Shown here: positions 43,886-60,601 of the stretch, piece by piece | Numbering within the stretch: the first letter of the stretch is position 1 | How the letters are laid out: every line of letters begins with the position of its first letter | DNA from: Candidatus Poribacteria bacterium | Lineage (GTDB): Bacteria > Poribacteria > WGA-4E > WGA-3G | Length of the DNA: 64,000 nt | Assembly (NCBI GenBank): GCA_965220325.1 | Contig: OZ244821.1 | Location: 3,037,924 to 3,101,923 of the forward strand | Direction of reading: 5' to 3' | Notes under the pieces: generated by a model | Told to the model about the DNA's origin: nothing | What the model saw: the letters and a program-made list of their open reading frames with translations, nothing else | Databases searched by the model: none | Position numbers and translations under genes: made by a program

Positions 43886-43915
43886 GGGCGGGGTTTCTGT
43901 GCCCCGCCATTGTCT
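43886..43915 (+). terminator. Putative intrinsic terminator after aspC (GGGCGGGG-loop-CCCCGCC, weak U-tract)
   Basis: GC hairpin 18 nt after the aspC stop. The tail ATTGTCTG is T-poor. Confidence 0.4.
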
Positions 43916-43978
43916 GAATGCTCGTCGCATTTGGGCGAGTACGCCGCAAATCTCGGATTTGCGCGGATTACACTGAGC

Positions 43979-45346
43979 ATGAACGTCAAAAACCGAACCA
44001 TCTTCTCAAACGACAACCTACCCGTCCTGCGCGGCATCGACACTGAATCCGTCGATCTGATCTATCTTGACCCGCCGTTCAATTCCAATCGGAACTACGC
44101 AGCACCCATCGGCAGCGAGGCAGCAGGCGCAGCCTTCAAAGATACATGGATGCTGTCCGATGTAGACAACGCATGGCACGGCGAAATAGCTGATCGTGAA
44201 CCCGCTTTGTATCAGGCGATACACGCAGCCGAGCTCACACACGGTAAGGGCATGAAGTCTTACCTTATCATGATGGCCGTGCGGTTATTAGAGATGCAGC
44301 GCGTCTTGAAAAAGACAGGGAATATCTATCTGCATTGCGACCCGACTGCAAGCCATTATCTCAAAACGCTTATGGATAGTGTGTTTGGAAAGAACAACTT
44401 TAAGAATGAGATTGTGTGGAATTCGGCAACGGGCGCTAAAAATAATGTCAAAACTCGTTTTGGTAGAGGACATGACATTATATTCTTCTACGGAATGCCC
44501 AAATCTAAATTCAATGTTCAATATGAGCCGCTGAGCGAAGAGTATCTGAAATCGCATTATACTTATACAGACGGAGATGGGCGACGTTTTCGTGCGGATA
44601 ACTTGAATGCGCCAAGCACTGATGGGCATCGCTATGAATTTCTGGGCGTTACAAGAAATTGGAGAATGACAGAAGAACAAGCACACCGATGGTTAGCCGA
44701 GGGGCGTATCGTACATCAAAGCATCACGCCAGGGTCTCGTGTCAGGATTCCGAGTTATAAACGCTACGCGGATGAATCTCTGGGTCGTCCTGCCTTGGAT
44801 AATTGGACAGATATAGGTGCCCTCAATTCTCAAGCAAAAGAATCCATCGGTTACCCCACCCAAAAACCTGTTGCTTTATTGGAGCGCATCATCAAAGCAA
44901 GCAGTAATAAAGATGACATCGTATTAGATCCGTTCTGTGGGTGTGCTACAACGTGCGTCGCAGCGGAACGGCTACAACGACAATGGATCGGTATTGACAT
45001 ATCACCCAAAGCCGTTAACCTTGTCTGTGTGAGGTTAGAAGCTGAGGTCGGAATCTTCGGAGAAGTCATCCACCTCACGGACATCCCCAAACGGAGTGAG
45101 AAACTACCCAATTACCGCACCCATAAACATACGTTATACGGTCAGCAGGAAGGCTTATGTAACGGGTGTAGAACACAATTTCCGTTTAGAAACATGACAG
45201 TTGATCACATCGTGCCACAATCGCAAGGCGGCACCGACTACGAGGATAACCTACAACTCCTTTGCGGTGCTTGCAACTCTACGAAGGAACGAGGCACACA
45301 AGCCGAGCTGATTTCACGACTAAAAGCCCAAGGCGTTTTACACTAA
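43979..45346 (+). CDS. Beta-class DNA amino-methyltransferase (DPPF motif IV before DPFCGCATT motif I) fused to a C-terminal HNH endonuclease domain
   Basis: IYLDPPFNSNRNY (N6-adenine/N4-cytosine MTase motif IV), DPFCGCATTCVAA (motif I), C-terminal CNGC...DHIVPQSQGG...NLQLLCGACN (HNH). ATG chosen after the aspC terminator. The ORF track's longer start overlaps the terminator. Confidence 0.75.
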   Translation: MNVKNRTIFSNDNLPVLRGIDTESVDLIYLDPPFNSNRNYAAPIGSEAAGAAFKDTWMLSDVDNAWHGEIADREPALYQAIHAAELTHGKGMKSYLIMMAVRLLEMQRVLKKTGNIYLHCDPTASHYLKTLMDSVFGKNNFKNEIVWNSATGAKNNVKTRFGRGHDIIFFYGMPKSKFNVQYEPLSEEYLKSHYTYTDGDGRRFRADNLNAPSTDGHRYEFLGVTRNWRMTEEQAHRWLAEGRIVHQSITPGSRVRIPSYKRYADESLGRPALDNWTDIGALNSQAKESIGYPTQKPVALLERIIKASSNKDDIVLDPFCGCATTCVAAERLQRQWIGIDISPKAVNLVCVRLEAEVGIFGEVIHLTDIPKRSEKLPNYRTHKHTLYGQQEGLCNGCRTQFPFRNMTVDHIVPQSQGGTDYEDNLQLLCGACNSTKERGTQAELISRLKAQGVLH

Positions 45347-45371: not shown

Positions 45372-47102
45372 ATGCCAGAGCAGAATACACCGAACCTCGT
45401 TTTCGTGATCACTGACGACCAAGGCTACGGCGATTTGGGGTGTACCGGAAATCCGGTTATCAATACACCGAATCTCGACGCGCTCGCGGGACAGAGCGTG
45501 CAACTACAGAATCTGCACGTCGGTCCCACTTGTTCGCCGACACGCGCCGGAATTATGACGGGACACTATTGTAACTCTACAGGCGTGTGGCACACCATCG
45601 GTGGACGCTCACTCCTCCGTAGTGACGAGGTCACAATGGCAGATATTTTCCGGCGCAACGGTTATAAGACTGGTATGTTCGGTAAGTGGCACCTCGGCGA
45701 CAACTACCCGTTCCGTCCACACGACAGAGGCTTTGACGAAGCACTCTATCACGGCGGTGGCGGTATCAGTCAGACCCCGGATTATTGGGGCAACGACTAT
45801 TTCGATGACACCTATTTCCGAAACGGCTCTGAACAACCCTTCGATGGTTACTGCACGGATGTCTGGTTCCAAGAGGCGATGGCGTTTATTGAGCGGCAGG
45901 TTGACGGCGATCAGAACCGTCCGTTCTTCTGTTATCTCTCTACAAATGCCCCACACGGTCCGTTCCGTGTTCCTGACGCTTACAGCGAAGTCTATCGTAG
46001 GAAAGAGGTACCGAGGGACCGCTCGAATTTCTACGGTATGATTACTAATATTGACGACAATATGGCGCGATTGCGGCACCATCTTCGGGTCTTGGGAATT
46101 GAGGAAAACACAATCCTCATCTTCATGACCGATAACGGTACCGCGGCGGGATGCGATCTCGGTGAAGGACAATTCGTCAAGTCCGGATATAACGCCGGTA
46201 TGCGCGGCAAGAAAGGATCGCCTTATGAAGGTGGACACCGCGTACCGCTCTTTATGCATTGGCCCGGCGGAGGGTTCACCGAAAAGCAAGAGGTCCACGA
46301 ATTGACCGCAAATATCGATCTCCTTCCGACATTGATAGACCTCTGCGACCTTGAGATTTCCGAAAACACGACTTTTCACGGTACAAGCCTGGCTCCGCTG
46401 TTGAGAAACGAGACAGAGACCTGGGAAGAACGGGTTATTGTGACCGATTCGCAGCGCGTCGAAAACCCAATTAAGTGGAAAGATAGCGCGACGATGTCGC
46501 AACGGTGGCGACTTATTAACGGGAAAGAACTCTACGATATTCAGGCAGATCCCGGACAAGAACGCGACATCGCCAACGAACATCTAGAGGTTGTCGCAGA
46601 ACTCCGAGAGCATTACGAAACGTGGTGGAAATTGGTCTCAAGACGTTTTGATGAGGACTGTCCGATTGTCGTCGGCACGCAAAGCGAACCCGTTACCTGT
46701 ATCACAACACACGATTGGCACGGTGAGAGACACGCGTGGAATCAGGGGAGTATCCGTCGCGGTATGGAGTGTAACGGCTATTGGGCTATTGAGATACCTG
46801 AAGATGGGGCGTATAGTTTTGAATTGCGCCGCTGGCCCTACGCCGAAGATAGAGCAATAACGGACGGTATTCCGGGTGAGCCTATTGACCTCTACAACGG
46901 TGGGAAGGCGTTGGCACTCACAACAGCACAAATCCGCGTCGGAGATCAGGCAGCAACACAAGCCATTGCACCGGATGCAAAAGGCGTGACGTTTACGTTC
47001 AACCTCACTGCTGGTCAGACACGTCTTCACACGGAATTGACCGATGAAACGGGTGAATTGGCAGTTGGCGCGTATTATGTGTATGCAAAACGGGTGATCT
47101 AA
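45372..47102 (+). CDS. Sulfatase (arylsulfatase family, formylglycine-dependent)
   Basis: CSPTRAGIMTGHY (C-x-P-x-R FGly motif), GKWHLG, and the N-terminal VFVITDDQG metal-binding motif. RBS AAAGGAG. Confidence 0.85.
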   Translation: MPEQNTPNLVFVITDDQGYGDLGCTGNPVINTPNLDALAGQSVQLQNLHVGPTCSPTRAGIMTGHYCNSTGVWHTIGGRSLLRSDEVTMADIFRRNGYKTGMFGKWHLGDNYPFRPHDRGFDEALYHGGGGISQTPDYWGNDYFDDTYFRNGSEQPFDGYCTDVWFQEAMAFIERQVDGDQNRPFFCYLSTNAPHGPFRVPDAYSEVYRRKEVPRDRSNFYGMITNIDDNMARLRHHLRVLGIEENTILIFMTDNGTAAGCDLGEGQFVKSGYNAGMRGKKGSPYEGGHRVPLFMHWPGGGFTEKQEVHELTANIDLLPTLIDLCDLEISENTTFHGTSLAPLLRNETETWEERVIVTDSQRVENPIKWKDSATMSQRWRLINGKELYDIQADPGQERDIANEHLEVVAELREHYETWWKLVSRRFDEDCPIVVGTQSEPVTCITTHDWHGERHAWNQGSIRRGMECNGYWAIEIPEDGAYSFELRRWPYAEDRAITDGIPGEPIDLYNGGKALALTTAQIRVGDQAATQAIAPDAKGVTFTFNLTAGQTRLHTELTDETGELAVGAYYVYAKRVI

Positions 47103-51698: not shown

Positions 51699-51774
<76 letters not shown>

Positions 51775-51797
51775 TCAAAATGGAACATTTAACACGA

Positions 51798-51871
<74 letters not shown>

Positions 51872-51904
51872 GTTTTCATATTGTTGATGGCAGCATTAAA
51901 ATAT

Positions 51905-51978
51905 GGTGGATGTAGCTCAGGGGTAGAGCACTTGACTGTGGATCAAGTGGTCGTGGGTTCAAATCCCATCATCCACCC
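51905..51978 (+). tRNA. tRNA-His (anticodon GTG)
   Basis: Acceptor GGTGGAT/ATCCACC. Anticodon stem CTTGA/TCAAG with loop CTGTGGA. T-loop GGTTCAAATCC. Confidence 0.85.
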
Positions 51979-51984
51979 TCATGA

Positions 51985-52057
51985 GCGTCCGTAGTTCAAT
52001 GGATAGAGCAATAGTCTTCGGAACTATAAGTTGGGGGTTCGAATCCCTCCGGACGCG
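51985..52057 (+). tRNA. tRNA-Arg (anticodon TCG)
   Basis: Acceptor GCGTCCG/CGGACGC. Anticodon stem ATAGT/ACTAT with loop CTTCGGA. T-loop GGTTCGAATCC. Confidence 0.75.
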
Positions 52058-52113
52058 AATACTTATGGATGCCGAGCGGGCACTTCAAAAGCAGTATAGC
52101 AGAATGAGCAAGT

Positions 52114-52186
52114 GCGCCGTTAGCTCAATTGGCAGAGCATCTGACTCTTAATCAGGCGGTTGAAGGTTCGATTCCTTCACGGCGCA
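52114..52186 (+). tRNA. tRNA-Lys (anticodon CTT)
   Basis: Acceptor GCGCCGT/ACGGCGC. Anticodon stem TCTGA/TCAGG with loop CTCTTAA. T-loop GGTTCGATTCC. Confidence 0.75.
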
Positions 52187-52210
52187 TCGTCGATAACGCG
52201 GACAGAATTC

Positions 52211-52296
52211 GGGCGGGTGCTGGAATTTGGTAGACAGGATAGACTTAGGATCTATTGGGGTTACGCCTCGTGAGGGTTCAAGTCCCTCCTCGCCCA
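52211..52296 (+). tRNA. tRNA-Leu (anticodon TAG), class II with long variable arm
   Basis: Acceptor GGGCGGG/CTCGCCC (one G-U pair). Anticodon stem ATAGA/TCTAT with loop CTTAGGA. T-loop GGTTCAAGTCC. 86 nt. Confidence 0.8.
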
Positions 52297-52527
52297 TAGT
52301 TGCATTTGATTAAAGGGGCACGCAGAACAACACGGTTAAACACCGCCAAATAAATGGGATTGCCAAATTTTAATCGAGAGTGAAACCACACTCGCTACAG
52401 AAGTGTGTCGGTTTGATCAATAACCGGATTGTGCTGTCAAAGCATAGTTCGTCTTTTTTTAACTTTTTGACGAGGCGACACTTCAAAGGGTATCCCGGAT
52501 TTGGATGCCCAGCGTGAGGACAAAAGT

Positions 52528-53832
52528 TTGAGAGTTCAAGTTGAAAGATTAGACACCACGCAAGTCCGTCTGGACATAGAGGTTCCCGTTGAAGACGTTA
52601 ACGCAGCGTTGAAGGAAGCTTATGAGGCACTCCGCACACAAGTTTCTATCCCCGGTTTCCGGAAAGGACGCGTGCCGGTAGCAATCCTGAAATCTCGATT
52701 CCCTGATTATATCAGCAATGAAGCCGTCCGGTACCTCATCGCTCCTGCTTACGAAGATGCTATTCAACGCGAAAACCTGAATCCACTCTCTCAACCGACG
52801 TTCACACCGTCTCTTGACGAATTGCAAGTTAAGGAAAACGAACCGCTGGCATTCTCCGCCACGGTAGATATTCGCCCCGATATAGATATCCCGCCCTACG
52901 AAGAGCTCGTAACCGATAAAAACCCTGTCAATGTACCCCGTGAAGATGTTGATGCCTATATCACGCGCCTGCAAACGCAATCTGCGACTTACGAACCGCT
53001 TGACGTTGAACGTCCAGTTCAAGAGGAGGACTGCGTCCGAATAGATTGGGAATGCCTCATTAATGGGGAACGGATTGATGCCGAATCAAGAACAGATGTC
53101 GATATAGAACTCGGTATCGGCGGCATACACGAAAAACTTGAGCAAGCAATCCTCGGCATGCAGATCGCGGAGACGAAATCCGTAGACATCGATTTTCCGC
53201 AAGAACATACAAACCCTGATCTCGCTGGCGAAACCGCTCAATATGAGATTACGCTGCACGCTATCACAGAGAAGCATCTGCCGCTCTTGGATGATGAATT
53301 TGCGAAGGACCTCGGCTATGAAAACTATTCTCAACTTTACGGTGTGATATGGAACAATATGGTTGAAGAAGAGACGAGTTTACATGTTGATAAACAGAAA
53401 GCAGAATTGCTGGCGCAACTTATTGAAAAAATTGATATTACGATCCCGGAACCGTTAGTGGATCAGTACGTCCAACAGACGCTTCAAAATGTGAAACAGC
53501 AACTTGCACGCGAACAGAGGACACCTGAGGATGCTGGTATTAATATGGAGACACTGCCTGATGAACTTCGGCGGGATGTCATCCAACAAACAAAGCAGTC
53601 CTGGATATTCAGCACAATCGCTGAAGAAGAGGGTATTTACGTATCCGACGATGAATTGGAATACGAGATCCGTCGTGTCGCTGAACAACAGAACCGAGAT
53701 GCTCAAAAGTATGCTGACATGTTGAAATCAAGTAATCGCTTGGAAGATTTTCGCGGGCAACTCCAACATGAGAAAATCTATCAGTTCCTTATTCATCGAG
53801 CGTCCGCGAAACAGTCGCTCATAATTACCTGA
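52528..53832 (+). CDS. tig: Trigger factor (ribosome-associated peptidyl-prolyl isomerase chaperone)
   Basis: N-terminus RVQVERLDTTQVRLDIEVP...SIPGFRKGRVP (ribosome-binding GFRxGxxP signature). A central FKBP-like region and a C-terminal helical arm. Probable TTG start 7 nt after GAGGA. Confidence 0.85.
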   Translation: MRVQVERLDTTQVRLDIEVPVEDVNAALKEAYEALRTQVSIPGFRKGRVPVAILKSRFPDYISNEAVRYLIAPAYEDAIQRENLNPLSQPTFTPSLDELQVKENEPLAFSATVDIRPDIDIPPYEELVTDKNPVNVPREDVDAYITRLQTQSATYEPLDVERPVQEEDCVRIDWECLINGERIDAESRTDVDIELGIGGIHEKLEQAILGMQIAETKSVDIDFPQEHTNPDLAGETAQYEITLHAITEKHLPLLDDEFAKDLGYENYSQLYGVIWNNMVEEETSLHVDKQKAELLAQLIEKIDITIPEPLVDQYVQQTLQNVKQQLAREQRTPEDAGINMETLPDELRRDVIQQTKQSWIFSTIAEEEGIYVSDDELEYEIRRVAEQQNRDAQKYADMLKSSNRLEDFRGQLQHEKIYQFLIHRASAKQSLIIT

Positions 53833-53865: not shown

Positions 53866-54144
53866 GGGTGTGTAAATATTTTGTCAATTGTCGTCTGAAT
53901 ACAAGTCGCTTATGGTATTTCTGCGGATTTCTTCAAGTCCGCCGCAAATCTCGGATTTTCACAAATTGGGAAATACTTGGCGATCGAGCTCGTTAGGGCG
54001 CAAGCTAACAGCATACGCTACAAAAGAGCAGTTCTTATCGAAGAGAGACTCTTAGGTTGTTGGGTTCGTTAGGGCGCAAGCTAACAGCGGACGCTACAAA
54101 AGATGATATGCTACAAAATCGCGCACCAAAAACTTTACACACTC
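53866..54144. mobile_element. MITE-like internally deleted derivative of the adjacent ISKra4-family IS (IS-end-like inverted repeats, no transposase)
   Basis: Left end GGGTGTGTAAATATTTTG resembles the IS left IR GGGTGTGTAAAGTTTTTGG. Right end CCAAAAACTTTACACAC equals the IS right IR. The interior contains two copies of CGTTAGGGCGCAAGCTAACAGC. Confidence 0.4.
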
Positions 54145-54153
54145 CTGCGATAC

Positions 54154-55594
54154 AGGGTGTGTAAAGTTTTTGGCAGCGTATTTTTGAAGATATGAGTTGA
54201 AGTTTGTCAATAAAAATGGTATCCTCTCGCAAAGATGATAAAGTTGAGTATCGTAAGGAGAAGATACCATGTCTAACATTGTAGCAGAAATTCAGCAAGA
54301 AATGGAAGATATTTTTCAAGAGTTAAGTGATACCGAGGACGTTTCGGTTTCGACCGTAGAGGCGCGTGTGTCTAAGGCTGCCGATTCTTGGGCACAAAGG
54401 TTATCCGAGTCGGTTCTATCAGAGACAGCGAGTTGTAAGGAGACATCGCCTGTGAGTGTTGCGTGTCCATCTTGTCAAGGGCATAGTCATAGGTATCGGT
54501 GCCGGGCGCGCAACTTCACGACGGTTTGTGGTGTTCTGCGTATCTCAAGATGGGCGTATAAATGTCAATGTGGTTATATTCATGTGCCTTGGGAGGCTAA
54601 GCAAGGGTTGAAAGGACGGTATACACAGGCGGTTGCCAAAGCGATGATGCGTGTCGCTGCACAGTTGAACTATCGTGCGGCGGCGGCGGAGTTGAAGCAT
54701 CAAGGCATTGAAGTGAGTCATACGACGCTGCATCAGAAGGTTCAGGAGTGGTCAGCAGGCGAAGTTATCTCTGATTATGTGGCATCGGAATGCTTGGAGT
54801 CTGATGCGCGTTGGTATGTCAGTTTTGATGGGTGCCACACGAACTCACCTGTCGGTTGGCAGGAGGTGAAAGTCGGGTGCATCGGTAAAGATTATCCGCA
54901 CCAGAACGCGACCTCGGTGATGAAAATCCGTCCACCGAGTCTCCGTTATATCGCTTCTCGGAGTTGTGCGTCGGATTTCGGAGAGCAGTTGTCTGCGTTA
55001 GCGACACAGACCGGTATTTATCAAGACGAAAAAACGATAGACACCGAAGAAGTCGTTGTTATCGGTGATGGGGCAGTGTGGATATGGAACTTGGCAGATG
55101 AACACTTCCCGGGTGCCACCGAAATCGTTGACTTTATGCATGCCAAGAAACATTTACATGATGTTGCCAAACTTGCTTTCGGCGAAGATGACTCAGACCG
55201 TGTAGAGACTTGGGTGCGGACAACCGAGACCCCCCTTTACAATGGAGAGACATCGCAAGTCGTCGCACGCATACGAGAGTTGGCAACAGAAAACCCAGCG
55301 ATAGGAGATGTCCTCGAAAAAGAAGTCCGCTATTTTCAAAAAAATGCTCATCGCATGCAATATCGGACGTTCAACGAAAAAGGCTATCAGATCGGCAGTG
55401 GTGTCATTGAGAGTGCTTGTAAACACGTCGTCGCTGAACGCTGTAAACAAGCAGGCATGCGATGGAGCACACCCGGGATAAATGCCATACTCTTTTGGCG
55501 ATGTTTGCTAAAGAATGACGCAGCAGATACTTATTGGGATACACAAACTATGCCAAACGCAGCATAAATACGCTGCCAAAAACTTTACACACCC
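54154..55594 (+). mobile_element. Insertion sequence of the ISKra4 family with about 28-bp terminal inverted repeats, inserted in the tig-clpP intergenic region
   Basis: Left IR GGGTGTGTAAAGTTTTTGGCAGCGTAT at 54154-54180 is the reverse complement of the right IR ATACGCTGCCAAAAACTTTACACACCC at 55568-55594. A single transposase ORF lies between. No clear target-site duplication. Confidence 0.75.
54269..55567 (+). CDS. ISKra4-family DDE transposase
   Basis: RBS AAGGAG. N-terminal Cys cluster (CPSCQGHSHRYRC). GDGAVWIWN ... DFMHAKKHLHD ... YQIGSGVIESACKHVVAERCKQAGMRWS motifs typical of ISKra4-type transposases. Confidence 0.7.
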   Translation: MSNIVAEIQQEMEDIFQELSDTEDVSVSTVEARVSKAADSWAQRLSESVLSETASCKETSPVSVACPSCQGHSHRYRCRARNFTTVCGVLRISRWAYKCQCGYIHVPWEAKQGLKGRYTQAVAKAMMRVAAQLNYRAAAAELKHQGIEVSHTTLHQKVQEWSAGEVISDYVASECLESDARWYVSFDGCHTNSPVGWQEVKVGCIGKDYPHQNATSVMKIRPPSLRYIASRSCASDFGEQLSALATQTGIYQDEKTIDTEEVVVIGDGAVWIWNLADEHFPGATEIVDFMHAKKHLHDVAKLAFGEDDSDRVETWVRTTETPLYNGETSQVVARIRELATENPAIGDVLEKEVRYFQKNAHRMQYRTFNEKGYQIGSGVIESACKHVVAERCKQAGMRWSTPGINAILFWRCLLKNDAADTYWDTQTMPNAA

Positions 55595-55645
55595 TAAGTT
55601 ATAAGTTATAAGTTAAGCAAGTTTCAATATTAAATAGATGTTTGC

Positions 55646-55674: not shown

Positions 55675-55778
55675 TTCCATCCTTCGCCCCTTCCATTTTT
55701 CCTGTTTGCCATCCTTCCTCAAAAGTTGAAATTTGTTCCTTAATATTGCTTAAACTTTAATTCGGATTGGAAATAAAG

Positions 55779-56381
55779 ATGAATCTTGTACCTGTCGTCG
55801 TCGAACAAACCGGTCGAGGGGAGCGCTCTTATGATATTTATTCTCGGCTACTTGAAGACCGGATTATCATGATTGGAACATCCATTGATGATGATGTTGT
55901 CGCGAGTCTTGTAACAGCACAAATGCTTTTCTTGGAGGGCAAGGACCCCGATGCGGATATCGTTCTCTACATTAACACCCCCGGCGGTTCCGTCTCCGCA
56001 GGATTGGCAATTTACGATACAATGCAGTACATCAAAGCAGATGTCCAAACTTGGTGTTTAGGTAGAGCTTATAGCATGGGTGCGGTTCTGCTTGCCGCGG
56101 GAGCACCGGGTAAACGCTACGCACTCCCTCACGCGAAAGCTCTCATTCATCAGCCGATGGCAACCGGTATCGCAGGACAAGCCTCTGATATTAGTATTCA
56201 CGCGAAAGAAATTTTACACGAACGAGATCGACTTTATGCTATTTTAGCCGAACATACCGGTCAAAATGTTGAGAAGATCTCTGTCGATGCTGATCGAGAT
56301 TTTTATATGACTGCGGATCAGGCGCTCGAATATGGACTCGTTGACCACGTTGTCGCGCAACGTGCCACACAGAGTGAATAG
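55779..56381 (+). CDS. clpP: ATP-dependent Clp protease proteolytic subunit
   Basis: Ser in [11 protein letters not shown], His in HQPM and Asp in DRDFYM form the catalytic triad. ATG at 55779. Confidence 0.9.
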
Positions 56382-56423
56382 CCATCGGAAACCATCGGCA
56401 GTCGGGAAAGAAAGGAGAACTCT

Positions 56424-57968
56424 ATGTCACAATCCGCCCATCGTGAAGTGTCCTGCTCTTTCTGTCAACAAGACAGCACACAAGTACGGTTACGACTCCT
56501 TCAGGGTAGGGGTGCCAACATCTGCGTTGAATGTATTGTCCGCCTATCAGCATCCACAGTGGAAAACGCTTCCTGTACGTTCTGTAGGCGAGATAATACG
56601 CACGTCGAACGGCTCTTTAATGGACTTGAGGCGAACATCTGTGAGAGATGCCTTGCCGAATGTATCGACTTGTGTAGCGACCTTCTCGTGCGAAACCGCG
56701 ATGGCAGCTTTGATATCTCTATTGACGGTTTCAAAAAGGCAGACGCAGACACAGCAAACGGGCAACACGGACCCGAAGACAGACAACAAAAATCTGGGCT
56801 CACACAAGAACACGGCGGTCACAAACCATCGAAAACTGAGACTGCACGCGCAACGAACTCTGGAACAAAAGGCGGGCAGGTGACACTTGCAGAACCGCCT
56901 TCACCTGAAGAAATTAAAACCAAACTTGATGAATACGTTATCGGTCAAGAACACGCTAAAAAGACGTTATCCGTCGCTGTTTACACGCATTACAAACGTT
57001 TGCACCACGATGATACTGATGATGATGTTGAATTAGATAAGAGCAACATCTTACTTATCGGTCCGACAGGCACGGGGAAAACGCTACTCGCCCAAACCCT
57101 CGCCAAAGTTTTAGATGTGCCTTTCGCTCTTACTGATGCAACAACATTGACCGAGGCGGGATACGTCGGCGAGGATGTCGAAAATATCATCTTAAAACTT
57201 GTGCAAGCGGCAGACGGTGATATTGCTCGCGCCGAAACAGGAATCATTTATATTGATGAAATTGATAAGATTACGCGGAAATCCGAGAACCCGTCAATTA
57301 CGCGTGATGTATCCGGGGAAGGCGTTCAGCAAGCATTACTGAAGATTTTGGAAGGCACAACGGCAGGTGTCCCGCCGCGCGGCGGCCGGAAGCACCCACA
57401 CCAAGAGATGATAGAGGTGAATACAAGGAAAGTCCTGTTTATCTGCGGCGGGACCTTTATCGGCGTAGAGAAGGCAATTAAGGACAGACTCGGCAAGCAG
57501 AGCATCGGTTTCGGATCACCCATCCAACCGAAAACAGAGACGAAAATTCATGAACTCCTTGCCCGGGTAACACCTAAAGATCTCATTAAATACGGCTTCA
57601 TACCGGAGTTGATCGGACGGCTTCCAGTTGTCACGACGCTTCATGACTTAGACGCATCTGCTTTGATTCGTATACTTACGGAGCCGAAGAACGCACTCGT
57701 TAAACAATACCGGCGGCTTTTGGCTTACGAAGGTGTGCAATTCGATATAGATGATGGAGCACTTGCAGCCATCGCAGATGAAGTGATTGAACGCGAAACT
57801 GGTGCGCGCGGATTAAGAGCGGTTTTTGAAAAGATTATGCTTGATACGCTCTATCGTCTCCCTTCGCTCAATGATGTCGAAGCGTGTCATATTACTGAAG
57901 ACACTGTGCGGAACGCTGAACCGCCGCAACTTATCTACAAAAAGTCCGAAGAACTGAAAACTGCATAA
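56424..57968 (+). CDS. clpX: ATP-dependent Clp protease ATP-binding subunit ClpX, with a duplicated N-terminal C4 zinc-binding domain and a long low-complexity linker
   Basis: Two tandem CxxC...CxxC modules (CSFCQQDS...ICVECIVRL and CTFCRRDN...ICERCLAEC). Then an AAA+ module with [11 protein letters not shown] Walker [10 protein letters not shown] Walker B and the GYVG pore loop. RBS AAAGGAG. Confidence 0.9.
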
Positions 57969-58159: not shown

Positions 58160-60601
58160 ATGAATTCGACAGCAACGCAAGAATACGAACCGGTAAATTT
58201 ACCCATTATCTATTTACCTCCGGATTTCAATACGGTTTTCCCGAGGACGAAATCTCTCCTAAACGCCACTCGCAAAATGGGAATCCAGGCCGTCCATACT
58301 GCCCTTCGTTCAGATAGGCGGGTGCTTCTCCTCCATCAGAAAGTGGAGTTGGAAGAAGCGGAAGAGGTCACGCCTGAACATCTCCACACTATTGGTGCTG
58401 TCGCTAATATCATCGAATCTTATGAACCTGGAGACGGTACCATCCGTATCGCTGTTGCTGCGGAACAGCGCGCGATTGTCCTTCGCTATACGAAAACCAA
58501 GGATTTCTTGGAGGCGGATGTGAAAGTTGTTCATGAAGAGATCGGGTTAGCAAACGCTGCCGCTGCACTCGTTAAAAAGACGAAGCAGCTTTTCAGTGAG
58601 TACGCGAAGACCCGACAGAAGGAACAACGCCGCGACTCACAGTCTCAGAACCTGACGTCCGAAGAAGTCAAACGCACGATTAAAGACCAAGAAGAACCCG
58701 GACACCTTGCAGATACCATCGCTGGATCCCTCGGTCTCACAGCATCCGAACGCCAAGAAGCCATTGAAGAACTCAATCCGATTAAGCGACTACAACTTAT
58801 CATTCGGTTTTTGAAAGAGGCGTTGGAACGGAACGAACTCTGGGACGATATCCACAATCAGGTACGTGAATCTGTCCAGAAAACACACCGAGAATTCTAC
58901 CTTCAGGAACAGATGAAGGTGATACAGAAGGAGCTCGGAAGAGATGACATCGCTGAAGTTGATGAACTCCGCGAACAGGTAAAAAACGCTGGCATGTCCG
59001 AGGAAGCGGAGGAAAAGGCGCTCAAGGAATTGGATCGGCTCGCGCAGATACCGCCGCAATCCGCAGAATCTGGAGTCATTCGTACTTATGTTGATTGGAT
59101 ACTTGCCCTTCCTTGGAAAGAGAGCACTGAACACCAACTTCAACTTCCGGAAGCACAACGCATACTTGACGAAGATCATTACGGGTTGGAGAAGCCGAAA
59201 GAGAATGTGCTCGAATATCTCGCTGTCTTACAACTCGTGAAACATCTAAAAGGTCCTATTATTTGTCTCGTTGGTCCCCCGGGAGTTGGAAAAACATCGC
59301 TTGGTAAGTCAGTTGCCCGTGCAACTGGTCGGAAATTCGTGAGGATGTCGCTCGGTGGTGTTCGCGATGAAGCGGAGATCCGTGGACACAGGCGCACCTA
59401 TATCGGCGCGATCCCCGGACGCATTATCCAAGGACTGCGAGATGTGAAGTCGAAAAATCCGCTCTTTCTTCTTGATGAAATTGATAAGCTGAGTTCCGAT
59501 TTTCGAGGTGACCCGGCATCTGCACTCCTAGAAGTTTTAGATCCGGAGCAGAATTCTACGTTCCGAGATCATTACATGGATATCGCCTTCGATCTCTCCG
59601 ATGTCATGTTCATCACGACGGCTAACACCCGTGTTACGATACCCGCACCGCTTCAAGATCGGATGGAAATCATTGAATTGCCGGGCTATACCGATTTTGA
59701 GAAGCATAACATTACGACTTTTACACCGAATGGGCTCATCCCGAAGCAACTCGAACGACATGGACTCTCAGGGGATAATATCACTTTCACAGATGATGCC
59801 ATCTATGAAATGATCCATAAATATACTCGCGAAGCCGGTGTCCGAAGCCTCGAACGTACTATTACTACCGTCATGCGGAAAGTCGCCAGAGAGATTGTCA
59901 CCGAAGATACCCCAGATCTCAACGTCGAAATAACGCCAGACAACTTGAGCGACTATCTCGGGCCTGCTAAGTGGACCCGCACGAAAGCCGAGGAACACGA
60001 CGAAATTGGTGTTGCTACCGGAATGGTGTGGACGCAAATTGGTGGTGATATTGTCTCGGTTGAAGCGACGACGATGCCGGGGGAAGGCAAACTCAGTATG
60101 ACCGGTCAACTTCAGGAAGTCATGCGTGAGTCTGTGCAGACTGCTGTCGCCTATATCCGTTCGCGCTCTGAATCCTTCGGGCTATCTGACAAGCAATTCG
60201 AGCAAGAAGATATTCATATCCACATCCCTGAAGGCGCGGTTCCGAAGGACGGTCCCTCGGCAGGAATCACCGTTGCTGCAGCGATCCTTTCCGCTGTAAC
60301 AGGTAAGTCCGTCCGAAAAGACATCGCTATGACGGGTGAAATCACACTTCGTGGTAGAGTACTCCCCATCGGTGGTCTAAAAGAGAAGGCACTCGCCGCT
60401 TACCGAAACGGTATCTTTGACATCATTATCCCTGTGGACAACGAGAAAGATGAAGTGGACATTCCAACAGAGATTCGTGAAGGGATCCGTTTCCACAAAG
60501 TCAACGATATGATGGAGGTACTCGAATTGGCACTGACAGAACCTATTGTTGAACCTGAAGTCCCTATAGAAATGCCAGTCGCCTCTCAACCGCCAGTATA
60601 G
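58160..60601 (+). CDS. lon: ATP-dependent Lon protease
   Basis: Lon N-terminal domain, AAA+ module (GPPGVGKTS Walker A) and a C-terminal protease domain with DGPSAGIT (catalytic Ser) and a downstream Lys. Confidence 0.9.

Follow-up and report, generated by a model that had tools for sequence, protein, structure and literature searches.

The ClpX encoded in a 64,000-nucleotide stretch of the genome of a Candidatus Poribacteria bacterium (contig OZ244821.1; this 64-kb stretch is referred to as the window) carries two consecutive zinc-binding domains (ZBDs) at its N-terminus, with the first, additional module (ZBD1) being the most constrained segment of the protein and the second (ZBD2) being connected to the AAA+ ring by an expanded tether. 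Both modules and their conservation can be regarded as practically certain, and the double-ZBD ClpX is a lineage-wide domain-architecture variant of a well-known machine. The gene, clpX, spans positions 56424..57968 of the window (514 amino acids plus the stop codon; all genes and protein features described below lie on the plus strand unless stated otherwise), as delimited by NCBIfam, Pfam and the Poribacteria orthologs. The interval 56424-56900, to which attention had been drawn in an earlier note made from the DNA letters of the window, corresponds to residues 1-159 and indeed comprises both ZBDs and the linker.

As judged from its sequence, the open reading frame (ORF) at 56424-57968 is a genuine, housekeeping-type ClpX with a complete motor. 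The full-length protein scores 615.1 bits against the NCBIfam ClpX equivalog PRK05342 (cut-off 359) and 578.3 bits against TIGR00382 (cut-off 370.75), and Pfam recognizes AAA_2, AAA and ClpB_D2-small in the whole protein, together with zf-C4_ClpX in two stretches. The AAA+ unfoldase core occupies residues 158-514 (56895..57965), as supported by invariant motif columns and by matches to E. coli ClpX structures; it aligns to the E. coli ClpX chains at E 1e-139, and to Listeria ClpX chains as well. In a 57-sequence alignment the Walker A (GPTGTGKT, 213-220) and Walker B (IIYIDEID, 274-281) motifs, the pore-1 loop GYVG (246-249), the RKH loop (322-324) and the ClpP-docking IGF loop (I361-G362-F363) are all invariant. 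Because the AAA+ ring, the pore loops and the IGF loop are canonical, hexameric, ATP-dependent unfolding and delivery of substrates to ClpP should proceed as they do in E. coli.

The cysteines of the N-terminal region are found at positions 11, 14, 34, 37, 51, 54, 73, 76, 80 and 84, and the first eight of them form two ligand patterns in succession, C11xxC14-N19-C34xxC37 in ZBD1 and C51xxC54-N18-C73xxC76 in ZBD2; the spacers of 19 or 20 residues given in the earlier note are in fact of 19 and 18 residues. ZBD1 covers residues 10-40 (56451..56543), as delimited by Pfam zf-C4_ClpX, by conservation and by AlphaFold2 (AF2) models, and ZBD2 covers residues 50-90 (56571..56693), as delimited by Pfam, NCBIfam, the ZBD chains of the PDB and AF2. 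When the two modules were scanned separately against zf-C4_ClpX (PF06689, gathering score 27 bits), residues 1-48 alone gave 31.9 bits (E 1.2e-7, profile positions 2-32 of 39) and residues 44-96 alone gave 35.5 bits (E 9.5e-9, profile positions 2-36 of 39), so that each module exceeds the gathering score in its own right, well above what chance would give, and the proposal of two consecutive ClpX-type Cys4 modules holds. The alignment to PRK05342 begins only at residue 47 of the 514, which places ZBD2 in the canonical position and makes ZBD1 the extra module. Consistent with that, ZBD2 can be aligned to the N. meningitidis and E. coli ZBD chains (PDB sequences).

The two modules are separated by a short connector (residues 41-49, 56544..56570), delimited by column conservation and selection, in which conservation is confined to the first half, 'LSAST' (41-45), with the remainder varying; the spacing from C37 to C51 is 13 residues, and the offset between the modules is 39-40 residues. 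Across 62 Poribacteria species all eight zinc-ligand cysteines are 100% conserved, F13, F53, C80, C84, D86 and L88 are likewise invariant, and the ZBD1 columns are 90-100% conserved. Positions 41-45 of the connector are conserved at 100, 98, 83, 95 and 96%, respectively, and positions 46-48 at 35-54%.

The modules differ in their C-terminal parts. ZBD1 lacks the full C-terminal helix, its sequence running out in 'CIVRLSAST' and its Pfam match ending at profile position 32 of 39, and ZBD2 has the full helix (residues 74-88, with the invariant L88). In E. coli numbering (P0A6H1), the phenylalanine equivalent to F16 is invariant in both modules (F13 in ZBD1 and F53 in ZBD2). In place of the distal hydrophobic pair I46/I47, ZBD1 has S44/T45 and ZBD2 has L87/L88 (or L83/C84), with the choice between L87/L88 and L83 depending on whether one supposes a one-turn insertion, 'LAEC'. 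A separate feature of the ZBD2 helix is a ladder of invariant cysteines, C76-x3-C80-x3-C84 (residues 76-84, 56649-56675), arranged along one of its faces; C84 has no counterpart in E. coli ClpX or in the single-ZBD ClpX of Poribacteria described below. The ladder could be a site of redox chemistry, of metal binding or of disulfide formation between subunits.

The strength of selection along the gene was estimated from a codon alignment with 61 orthologs from GTDB representatives, using pooled Nei-Gojobori counts against the sequence of the window and expressed as the ratio of nonsynonymous to synonymous differences per site (pN/pS). This ratio amounts to 0.062 in ZBD1 (residues 11-40), 0.31 in the connector (41-50), 0.18 in ZBD2 (51-90), 0.65 in the linker (91-160) and 0.099 in the AAA+ core, with the synonymous divergence being high in all five segments (approximately 0.6-0.7; pS of 0.68 in ZBD1). 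ZBD1 is therefore neither an untranslated leader nor a decaying remnant. The suspicion that the true start might lie downstream of the first module is thereby removed, since it is this module that is under the strongest purifying selection. The start codon at 56424 is the earliest ATG, GTG or TTG past the upstream in-frame stop, and a Shine-Dalgarno-like AGGAG (56413..56417), read from the sequence, lies 6 nt 5' of the ATG.

The expanded tether occupies residues 91-157 (56694..56894) and is delimited by the predicted local distance difference test score (pLDDT), by pN/pS, by conservation and by its variation in length. In the double-ZBD Poribacteria proteins the distance from the last zinc cysteine to the 'PSPEEIKxKLDEYV' start of the AAA+ domain has a median of 82 residues (range 57-84), as compared with 40 residues in a single-ZBD relative from the same phylum (L063) and 26 residues in E. 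coli. The 76-residue linker of the present protein contains 10 G, 7 each of S, D and T, 6 K and 5 Q, and the linkers pooled over the orthologs are 10% hydrophobic. Its columns are mostly less than 50% conserved, and residues 90-154 have an AF2 pLDDT of 26-39. The earlier note was thus right about the length of the linker, and its description as low-complexity was overstated; the tether is better described as polar and charged, fast-evolving and predicted to be disordered. Directly after the ZBD2 helix lies an island, 'PDGSxDxS' (residues 92-99, 56697-56720), conserved at 77-95% at its P, D, G, S, D and S positions and followed by approximately 58 poorly conserved, polar residues; the island is a candidate for a short linear motif.

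In the full-length AF2 model (57 sequences), ZBD1 is predicted to form strands 25-27 and 32-34 followed only by a short helix (35-39), and ZBD2 to form strands 64-66 and 71-73 followed by the long helix at 74-88, i.e. the same hairpin-plus-helix layout in both, at a pLDDT of 60-78. A separate model of residues 1-100 (19 sequences) has a mean pLDDT of 63.9, and its best matches in the PDB, as found with Foldseek, are the E. coli ClpX ZBD structures 2ds5, 2ds6 and 2ds8, with target-normalized template-modeling (TM) scores of 0.64-0.67, root-mean-square deviations of 2.6-2.9 Å and a probability of approximately 0.9 (0.91 for 2ds5_A). The E value of these matches, 0.15, is weak because the domain is tiny, and the matches pertain to the model of residues 1-100 as a whole, not being assigned to either module. 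By its PF06689 match the second cysteine cluster looks ZBD-like, as had been supposed, and 2ds5 (target TM 0.64), the best fold match of the N-terminal model, is in line with this. A search of the PDB sequences with residues 1-100 gave no entry with a tandem ZBD.

The double-ZBD form pervades the phylum. Among the 118 nearest database clusters (64-100% identity), the entries, where named, are Candidatus Poribacteria ClpX or 'Geodia barretti' (a sponge), and essentially all that include the N-terminus have both modules. When 185,579 GTDB species genomes were scanned with patterns derived from the alignment of the N-termini, 63 loci were recovered, all of them from Poribacteria, of which 62 have the double ZBD (61 complete genes and L056, which ends after residue 74). 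Both modules are thus kept in at least 62 species of the phylum. The remaining locus (L063, contig CBDHDL010000021) encodes a 429-residue ClpX with a single ZBD and a 40-residue linker, and a 430-residue relative from a TARA ocean metagenome (P0120) likewise has a single ZBD and a short linker. To judge from their isolate names (Aplysina WGA-3G, Porites 'Plut' and Geodia), the double-ZBD genomes would belong to symbionts of sponges and corals, and we infer, not as a result in itself, that the single-ZBD lineage could be a pelagic one. An additional NCBI entry (P0119) is a 630-residue 'ClpX' in which several segments are repeated; it seems to stem from an error of assembly or gene calling and not to represent a true architecture. 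In the literature searched, no description of a tandem or duplicated ZBD in ClpX was found, with a paper on the three ClpX proteins of M. xanthus describing no more than whether the N-domain is present or absent, and the databases label the double-ZBD proteins simply as ClpX.

A HMMER search with residues 1-95 against 1.84 billion representatives gave 217 matches at E <=1e-3. The four strongest are fragments of Poribacteria ClpX, and most of the others are small proteins with 2-6 tandem ZBDs of the ClpX type. A separate homology search with residues 1-95 retrieved only eight short fragments of the same Poribacteria genes and is uninformative on distribution. No full-length Poribacteria ClpX was returned from the 50%-identity representatives of the HMMER search, so these proteins evidently reside under cluster representatives that the tandem-ZBD query does not match, and the occurrence of a double-ZBD ClpX in other phyla is not readable from it. 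What the HMMER search does bring to light are hundreds of small metagenomic tandem-ZBD proteins (P0129-P0274; L065, L066), the function of which is, to our knowledge, uncharacterized. In these proteins 32 inter-module spacers measure 8-18 residues, and many of the pairs so spaced consist of a helix-truncated first ZBD followed by a full-helix second one; the recurrence of this layout argues that a truncated ZBD1 is viable as a module. Examples include a complete 100-residue tandem-ZBD ORF (P0155), an SspB-like domain joined to two ZBDs (P0248) and a TPR protein with six ZBDs (P0228). Three ZBDs joined to a divergent, short AAA domain occur in P0185, which adjoins a DUF4062-TPR gene (L066) and is the only ZBD-multiplied ATPase in the search of the 50%-identity representatives. 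The small proteins may constitute a class of adaptors or regulators of ClpX that has escaped study, and the SspB-like fusion hints that ZBD-ZBD pairing may be used in docking.

With respect to the origin of the second module, ZBD1 and ZBD2 share 45% identity with one another, and they are 59% and 47% identical, respectively, to the single ZBD of L063, with the identity to the E. coli ZBD being only 31-38%. The Poribacteria-specific motif 'RL[LF]xGxEANIC' is common to ZBD1, ZBD2 and the single ZBDs of L063 and P0120, whereas canonical ZBDs have 'KLIAGPSVYIC' instead. Moreover, the two forms correspond in their leaders (MSESIHRDLFCSFC in the double and MSESIDGNVFCSFC in the single form), and the ZBD2 helix resembles the helix of the single form. 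The most likely and simplest history would be an in-frame tandem duplication inside an ancestral Poribacteria clpX, in which a unit of approximately 39 residues, consisting of the leader and the zinc-knuckle/β-hairpin core without the C-terminal helix, would have been doubled to give the order leader-core (ZBD1)-leader'-core-helix (ZBD2), with the tether being lengthened together with the duplication or afterwards. The single-ZBD form is probably the ancestral state, as favored by its retention of the canonical 'ICDxC' and of the short linker, and the direction of change would then be a gain in the double-ZBD clade and not a loss in the single-ZBD lineage.

The functional consequences can be considered against what has been described for E. 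coli ClpX, in which the ZBD exists obligatorily as a dimer, three of which are carried by each hexamer, in which its hydrophobic surface around F16/I46 binds lambda-O, trigger factor, SspB and RssB, and in which the number and freedom of the ZBD dimers modulate delivery to the pore and translocation (PMC7804408). By analogy, ZBD2 would bind one zinc ion via its four cysteines, pair with a neighboring protomer as a dimer and offer its hydrophobic patch for the docking of adaptors and of substrates that depend on the N-domain. This canonical role is expected because ZBD2 is in the canonical position and has kept the long C-terminal helix with its hydrophobic residues. The surface of ZBD1 must differ, since the distal hydrophobic pair is replaced by S44/T45, and ZBD1 would instead provide an added, lineage-specific docking surface for substrates, for adaptors or for ZBD2 itself. 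It can be argued from the extreme conservation of ZBD1 that something conserved is bound by it, be it a client or adaptor specific to the lineage or the ZBD2 of its own chain. The hexamer would thereby display twelve zinc modules and not six, and the tether, with approximately 55 residues beyond the usual length, would act as a longer leash which widens the capture radius of the N-domains. It is plausible that the duplicated ZBD alters adaptor or substrate specificity, as the earlier note had suggested. The assignment of docking and dimerization to ZBD2 and of an added docking surface to ZBD1 we regard as an evenly balanced proposition; the explanation taken as a whole, i.e. a tandem duplication of the ZBD with a canonical ZBD2, an extra docking module and a long leash, appears to us somewhat more probable than that.

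It has to be noted that several points weigh against this explanation. Zinc binding, dimerization of ZBD2 and docking by ZBD1 are all inferred, the AF2 models of the N-terminal region are only of moderate confidence (pLDDT 60-78, mean 63.9 for residues 1-100), and the Foldseek E value of 0.15 is weak. The check for clpS/sspB-type adaptor genes proposed in the earlier note gave no detectable ClpS or SspB in the 64-kb window (tblastn with the E. coli proteins, no match below E 0.1, a search of low power), a negative which says little, given that the window is a small part of a genome of approximately 6 Mb. Likewise, tblastn of the ZBD against the window, again of low power, gave no match below E 0.1. 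As regards the history, an outgroup-rooted neighbor-joining tree of the AAA+ core recovers the monophyly of the double-ZBD forms in only 54 of 100 bootstraps, and a midpoint-rooted tree places L063 among the double-ZBD sequences, so that a secondary loss of the ZBD in the lineage of L063 and P0120 is a possible alternative.

A different arrangement of the two modules, which is unlikely but has the best standing among the alternatives, is one in which ZBD1 and ZBD2 of the same chain associate as a pseudo-dimer, in imitation of the canonical ZBD dimer between molecules. With a complete docking platform on every protomer, there would be six independent platforms per hexamer versus three shared ones, and the cross-bracing of the N-domains of neighboring subunits would be lost. 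Such an arrangement would accord with the obligate dimerization of the canonical ZBD, three dimers per hexamer (PMC7804408), with the shortness of the connector (13 residues from C37 to C51) and the conservation of its first half 'LSAST', and with the longer tether, which would suit bulkier and autonomous N-domains; closely spaced ZBD-ZBD didomains also recur in many of the free-standing proteins, as though they were a structural unit. On the other hand, the distal helix residues, which in E. coli form part of the hydrophobic surface, are missing from ZBD1, confidence in the AF2 monomer models is moderate, and the 62 sequences are too closely related to each other for an analysis of co-variation.

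A broader version of this idea, to which we attach a slightly lower probability, holds that ZBD-ZBD pairing is a general docking code, in which ZBDs of the ClpX type, among them those of the hundreds of free-standing proteins with 2-6 ZBDs, some joined to SspB-like or TPR domains, would hetero-dimerize and so connect adaptors or anti-adaptors to ClpX. Poribacteria would have fused such a module onto the unfoldase itself, either as a pseudo-dimer, with six autonomous docking platforms, or as a permanent receptor for a set of clients specific to the symbiosis.

It is improbable, and clearly more so than the pairing models, that the doubled Cys4 motifs and the additional C80 and C84 constitute a sensor of redox state or zinc availability, through which ClpXP would change its selection of substrates in response to oxidative stress within the sponge. 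Ten invariant cysteines are present within 84 residues, including the C76/C80/C84 ladder that is not in the single-ZBD relative, and thiol-reactive compounds inactivate the ZBD of B. subtilis ClpX. The proposal is, however, purely inferential, E. coli has a cysteine equivalent to C80 which has no known redox role, and no redox-related genes are linked in the tig-clpP-clpX-lon cluster.

There is very little to be said for the two modules being one composite, two-zinc domain of the RING/LIM type, cross-braced or tightly fused, with a function unrelated to that of the ClpX ZBDs. This was prompted by a phmmer match of residues 1-100 to the RING of TRIM32 among the PDB sequences (residues 5-57, E 7e-5) and by LIM and RING domains among the weak Foldseek matches. 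The TRIM32 alignment, however, lacks the third and fourth ligands (C-x-H being aligned to G-R-G), and we reject the reading, as the match reflects the spacing of the cysteines only. The ligands are sequential and not interleaved, each module by itself exceeds the zf-C4_ClpX gathering score and forms its own hairpin-helix unit in AF2, LIM fingers are 2 residues apart versus 13 here, and the Foldseek probability is 0.1-0.35 as compared with 0.9 for the ClpX ZBD. The weakest alternative, that ZBD1 is a functionless, decaying remnant of the duplication or the product of a mis-called start, could draw on the missing C-terminal half of its helix and on the ClpX equivalog HMM aligning only from residue 47, but it is effectively already refuted by the lowest pN/pS of the gene despite the high pS of this segment, by the 90-100% conservation of the four cysteines and most other positions of ZBD1 in 62 species, and by the AGGAG preceding the ATG, with no alternative conserved start being present (the GTG at V46 is 40% conserved and has no ribosome-binding site).

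The gene is embedded in a tig-clpP-clpX-lon cluster, headed by tig, which encodes trigger factor (52501..53832; Pfam Trigger_N, FKBP_C and Trigger_C). The clpP gene (55767..56381; Pfam CLP_protease, 258 bits) ends 42 nt 5' of clpX, and lon lies 3' of it (58160..60601; Pfam LON_substr_bdg, AAA, Lon_lid and Lon_C). Synteny of clpX with clpP is found at 63 of 63 Poribacteria loci, as well as on a metagenome contig (L064), with that of tig holding at 61 loci and that of lon at 62. Three ORFs overlapping clpX, 56332-56883 on the plus strand and 56501-56803 and 56547-56822 on the minus strand, are taken as spurious because the selection signal sits in the frame of clpX, and scans with Rfam and for promoters and terminators revealed nothing relevant within the gene. 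Codons 2-10 of clpX (56427-56453) have a pS of 0.23, far below that of the rest of the gene (0.53-0.68), which suggests a constraint on the mRNA near the start, such as structure in the initiation region or translational coupling to clpP.

Between tig and clpP lies an insertion sequence (IS)-like element of approximately 1.44 kb (54154-55595), with terminal inverted repeats of 33 nt that are 97% complementary and an ORF of 432 residues (54269-55567) having a weak match to UPF0236, a transposase-like family. The element is not present in 62 of 62 orthologous Poribacteria loci, nor in a metagenome contig (L067) whose ClpX is identical to the present one, and its insertion is therefore recent or polymorphic. 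The spacer between tig and the element contains solo copies of its terminal repeat motif (GGGTGTGTAAA...) at 53866-53886 and 54126-54142, and a 38-nt direct repeat (53990-54027 and 54066-54103, 95% identity, 76 nt apart); these may be remnants of earlier insertions or debris resembling miniature inverted-repeat transposable elements. Farther upstream, six tRNA genes are clustered directly 5' of tig (51699-52296), and an ORF encoding an N6/N4 DNA methylase fused to an HNH endonuclease domain (43910-45346) is followed by a sulfatase gene (45372-47102).

The N-domain of ClpX determines which adaptors and N-domain-dependent substrates reach ClpXP. Twelve zinc modules on long leashes, kept throughout a phylum, would represent a natural experiment on the geometry of this domain, in an uncultivated lineage of sponge and coral symbionts in which no part of the protein is better conserved than the extra module, and the finding points at the same time to a large, unstudied set of tandem-ZBD proteins which are maybe ClpX adaptors or regulators. 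The established knowledge of ClpX is not overturned, nor is there as yet a bearing on a major open question; an extra, conserved ZBD on a long leash is rather an easily testable finding that is noteworthy for ClpX specialists.

In comparison with canonical ClpX (E. coli P0A6H1; ZBD structures 1OVX and 2DS5-2DS8, ring structures 6PO1 and 8E91), the Poribacteria protein shares the AAA+ core with its GYVG, RKH and IGF loops, the N-terminal Cys4 ZBD, which corresponds to ZBD2 here, and the tig-clpP-clpX-lon neighborhood. It differs from it in having a helix-truncated ZBD1 added N-terminally to the canonical ZBD, a tether of approximately 82 residues as compared with approximately 26 in E. coli, and a ZBD2 helix with the extra, invariant C84 and possibly a one-turn insertion. 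Many of the free-standing multi-ZBD proteins (examples of which are P0155, P0130, P0228 and P0248) show the same layout of a truncated module and then one with the full helix, 'C..C..LC..I..EE', as is found here with a spacer of 13 residues, but the free-standing proteins have no ClpX AAA+ module, contain 2-6 copies and are 30-45% identical to the Poribacteria N-terminus. The closest counterparts are the single-ZBD Poribacteria ClpX proteins (L063 and P0120), which share the phylum-specific ZBD signature 'RL[LF]QGxEANIC', the leader 'MSESI..' and the tig-clpP-clpX-lon synteny with the double form and have an AAA+ core that is 73-82% identical to it, and which differ from it in having one ZBD with the canonical 'ICDGCIDYCN' helix, a 40-residue linker and a total length of 429-430 residues.

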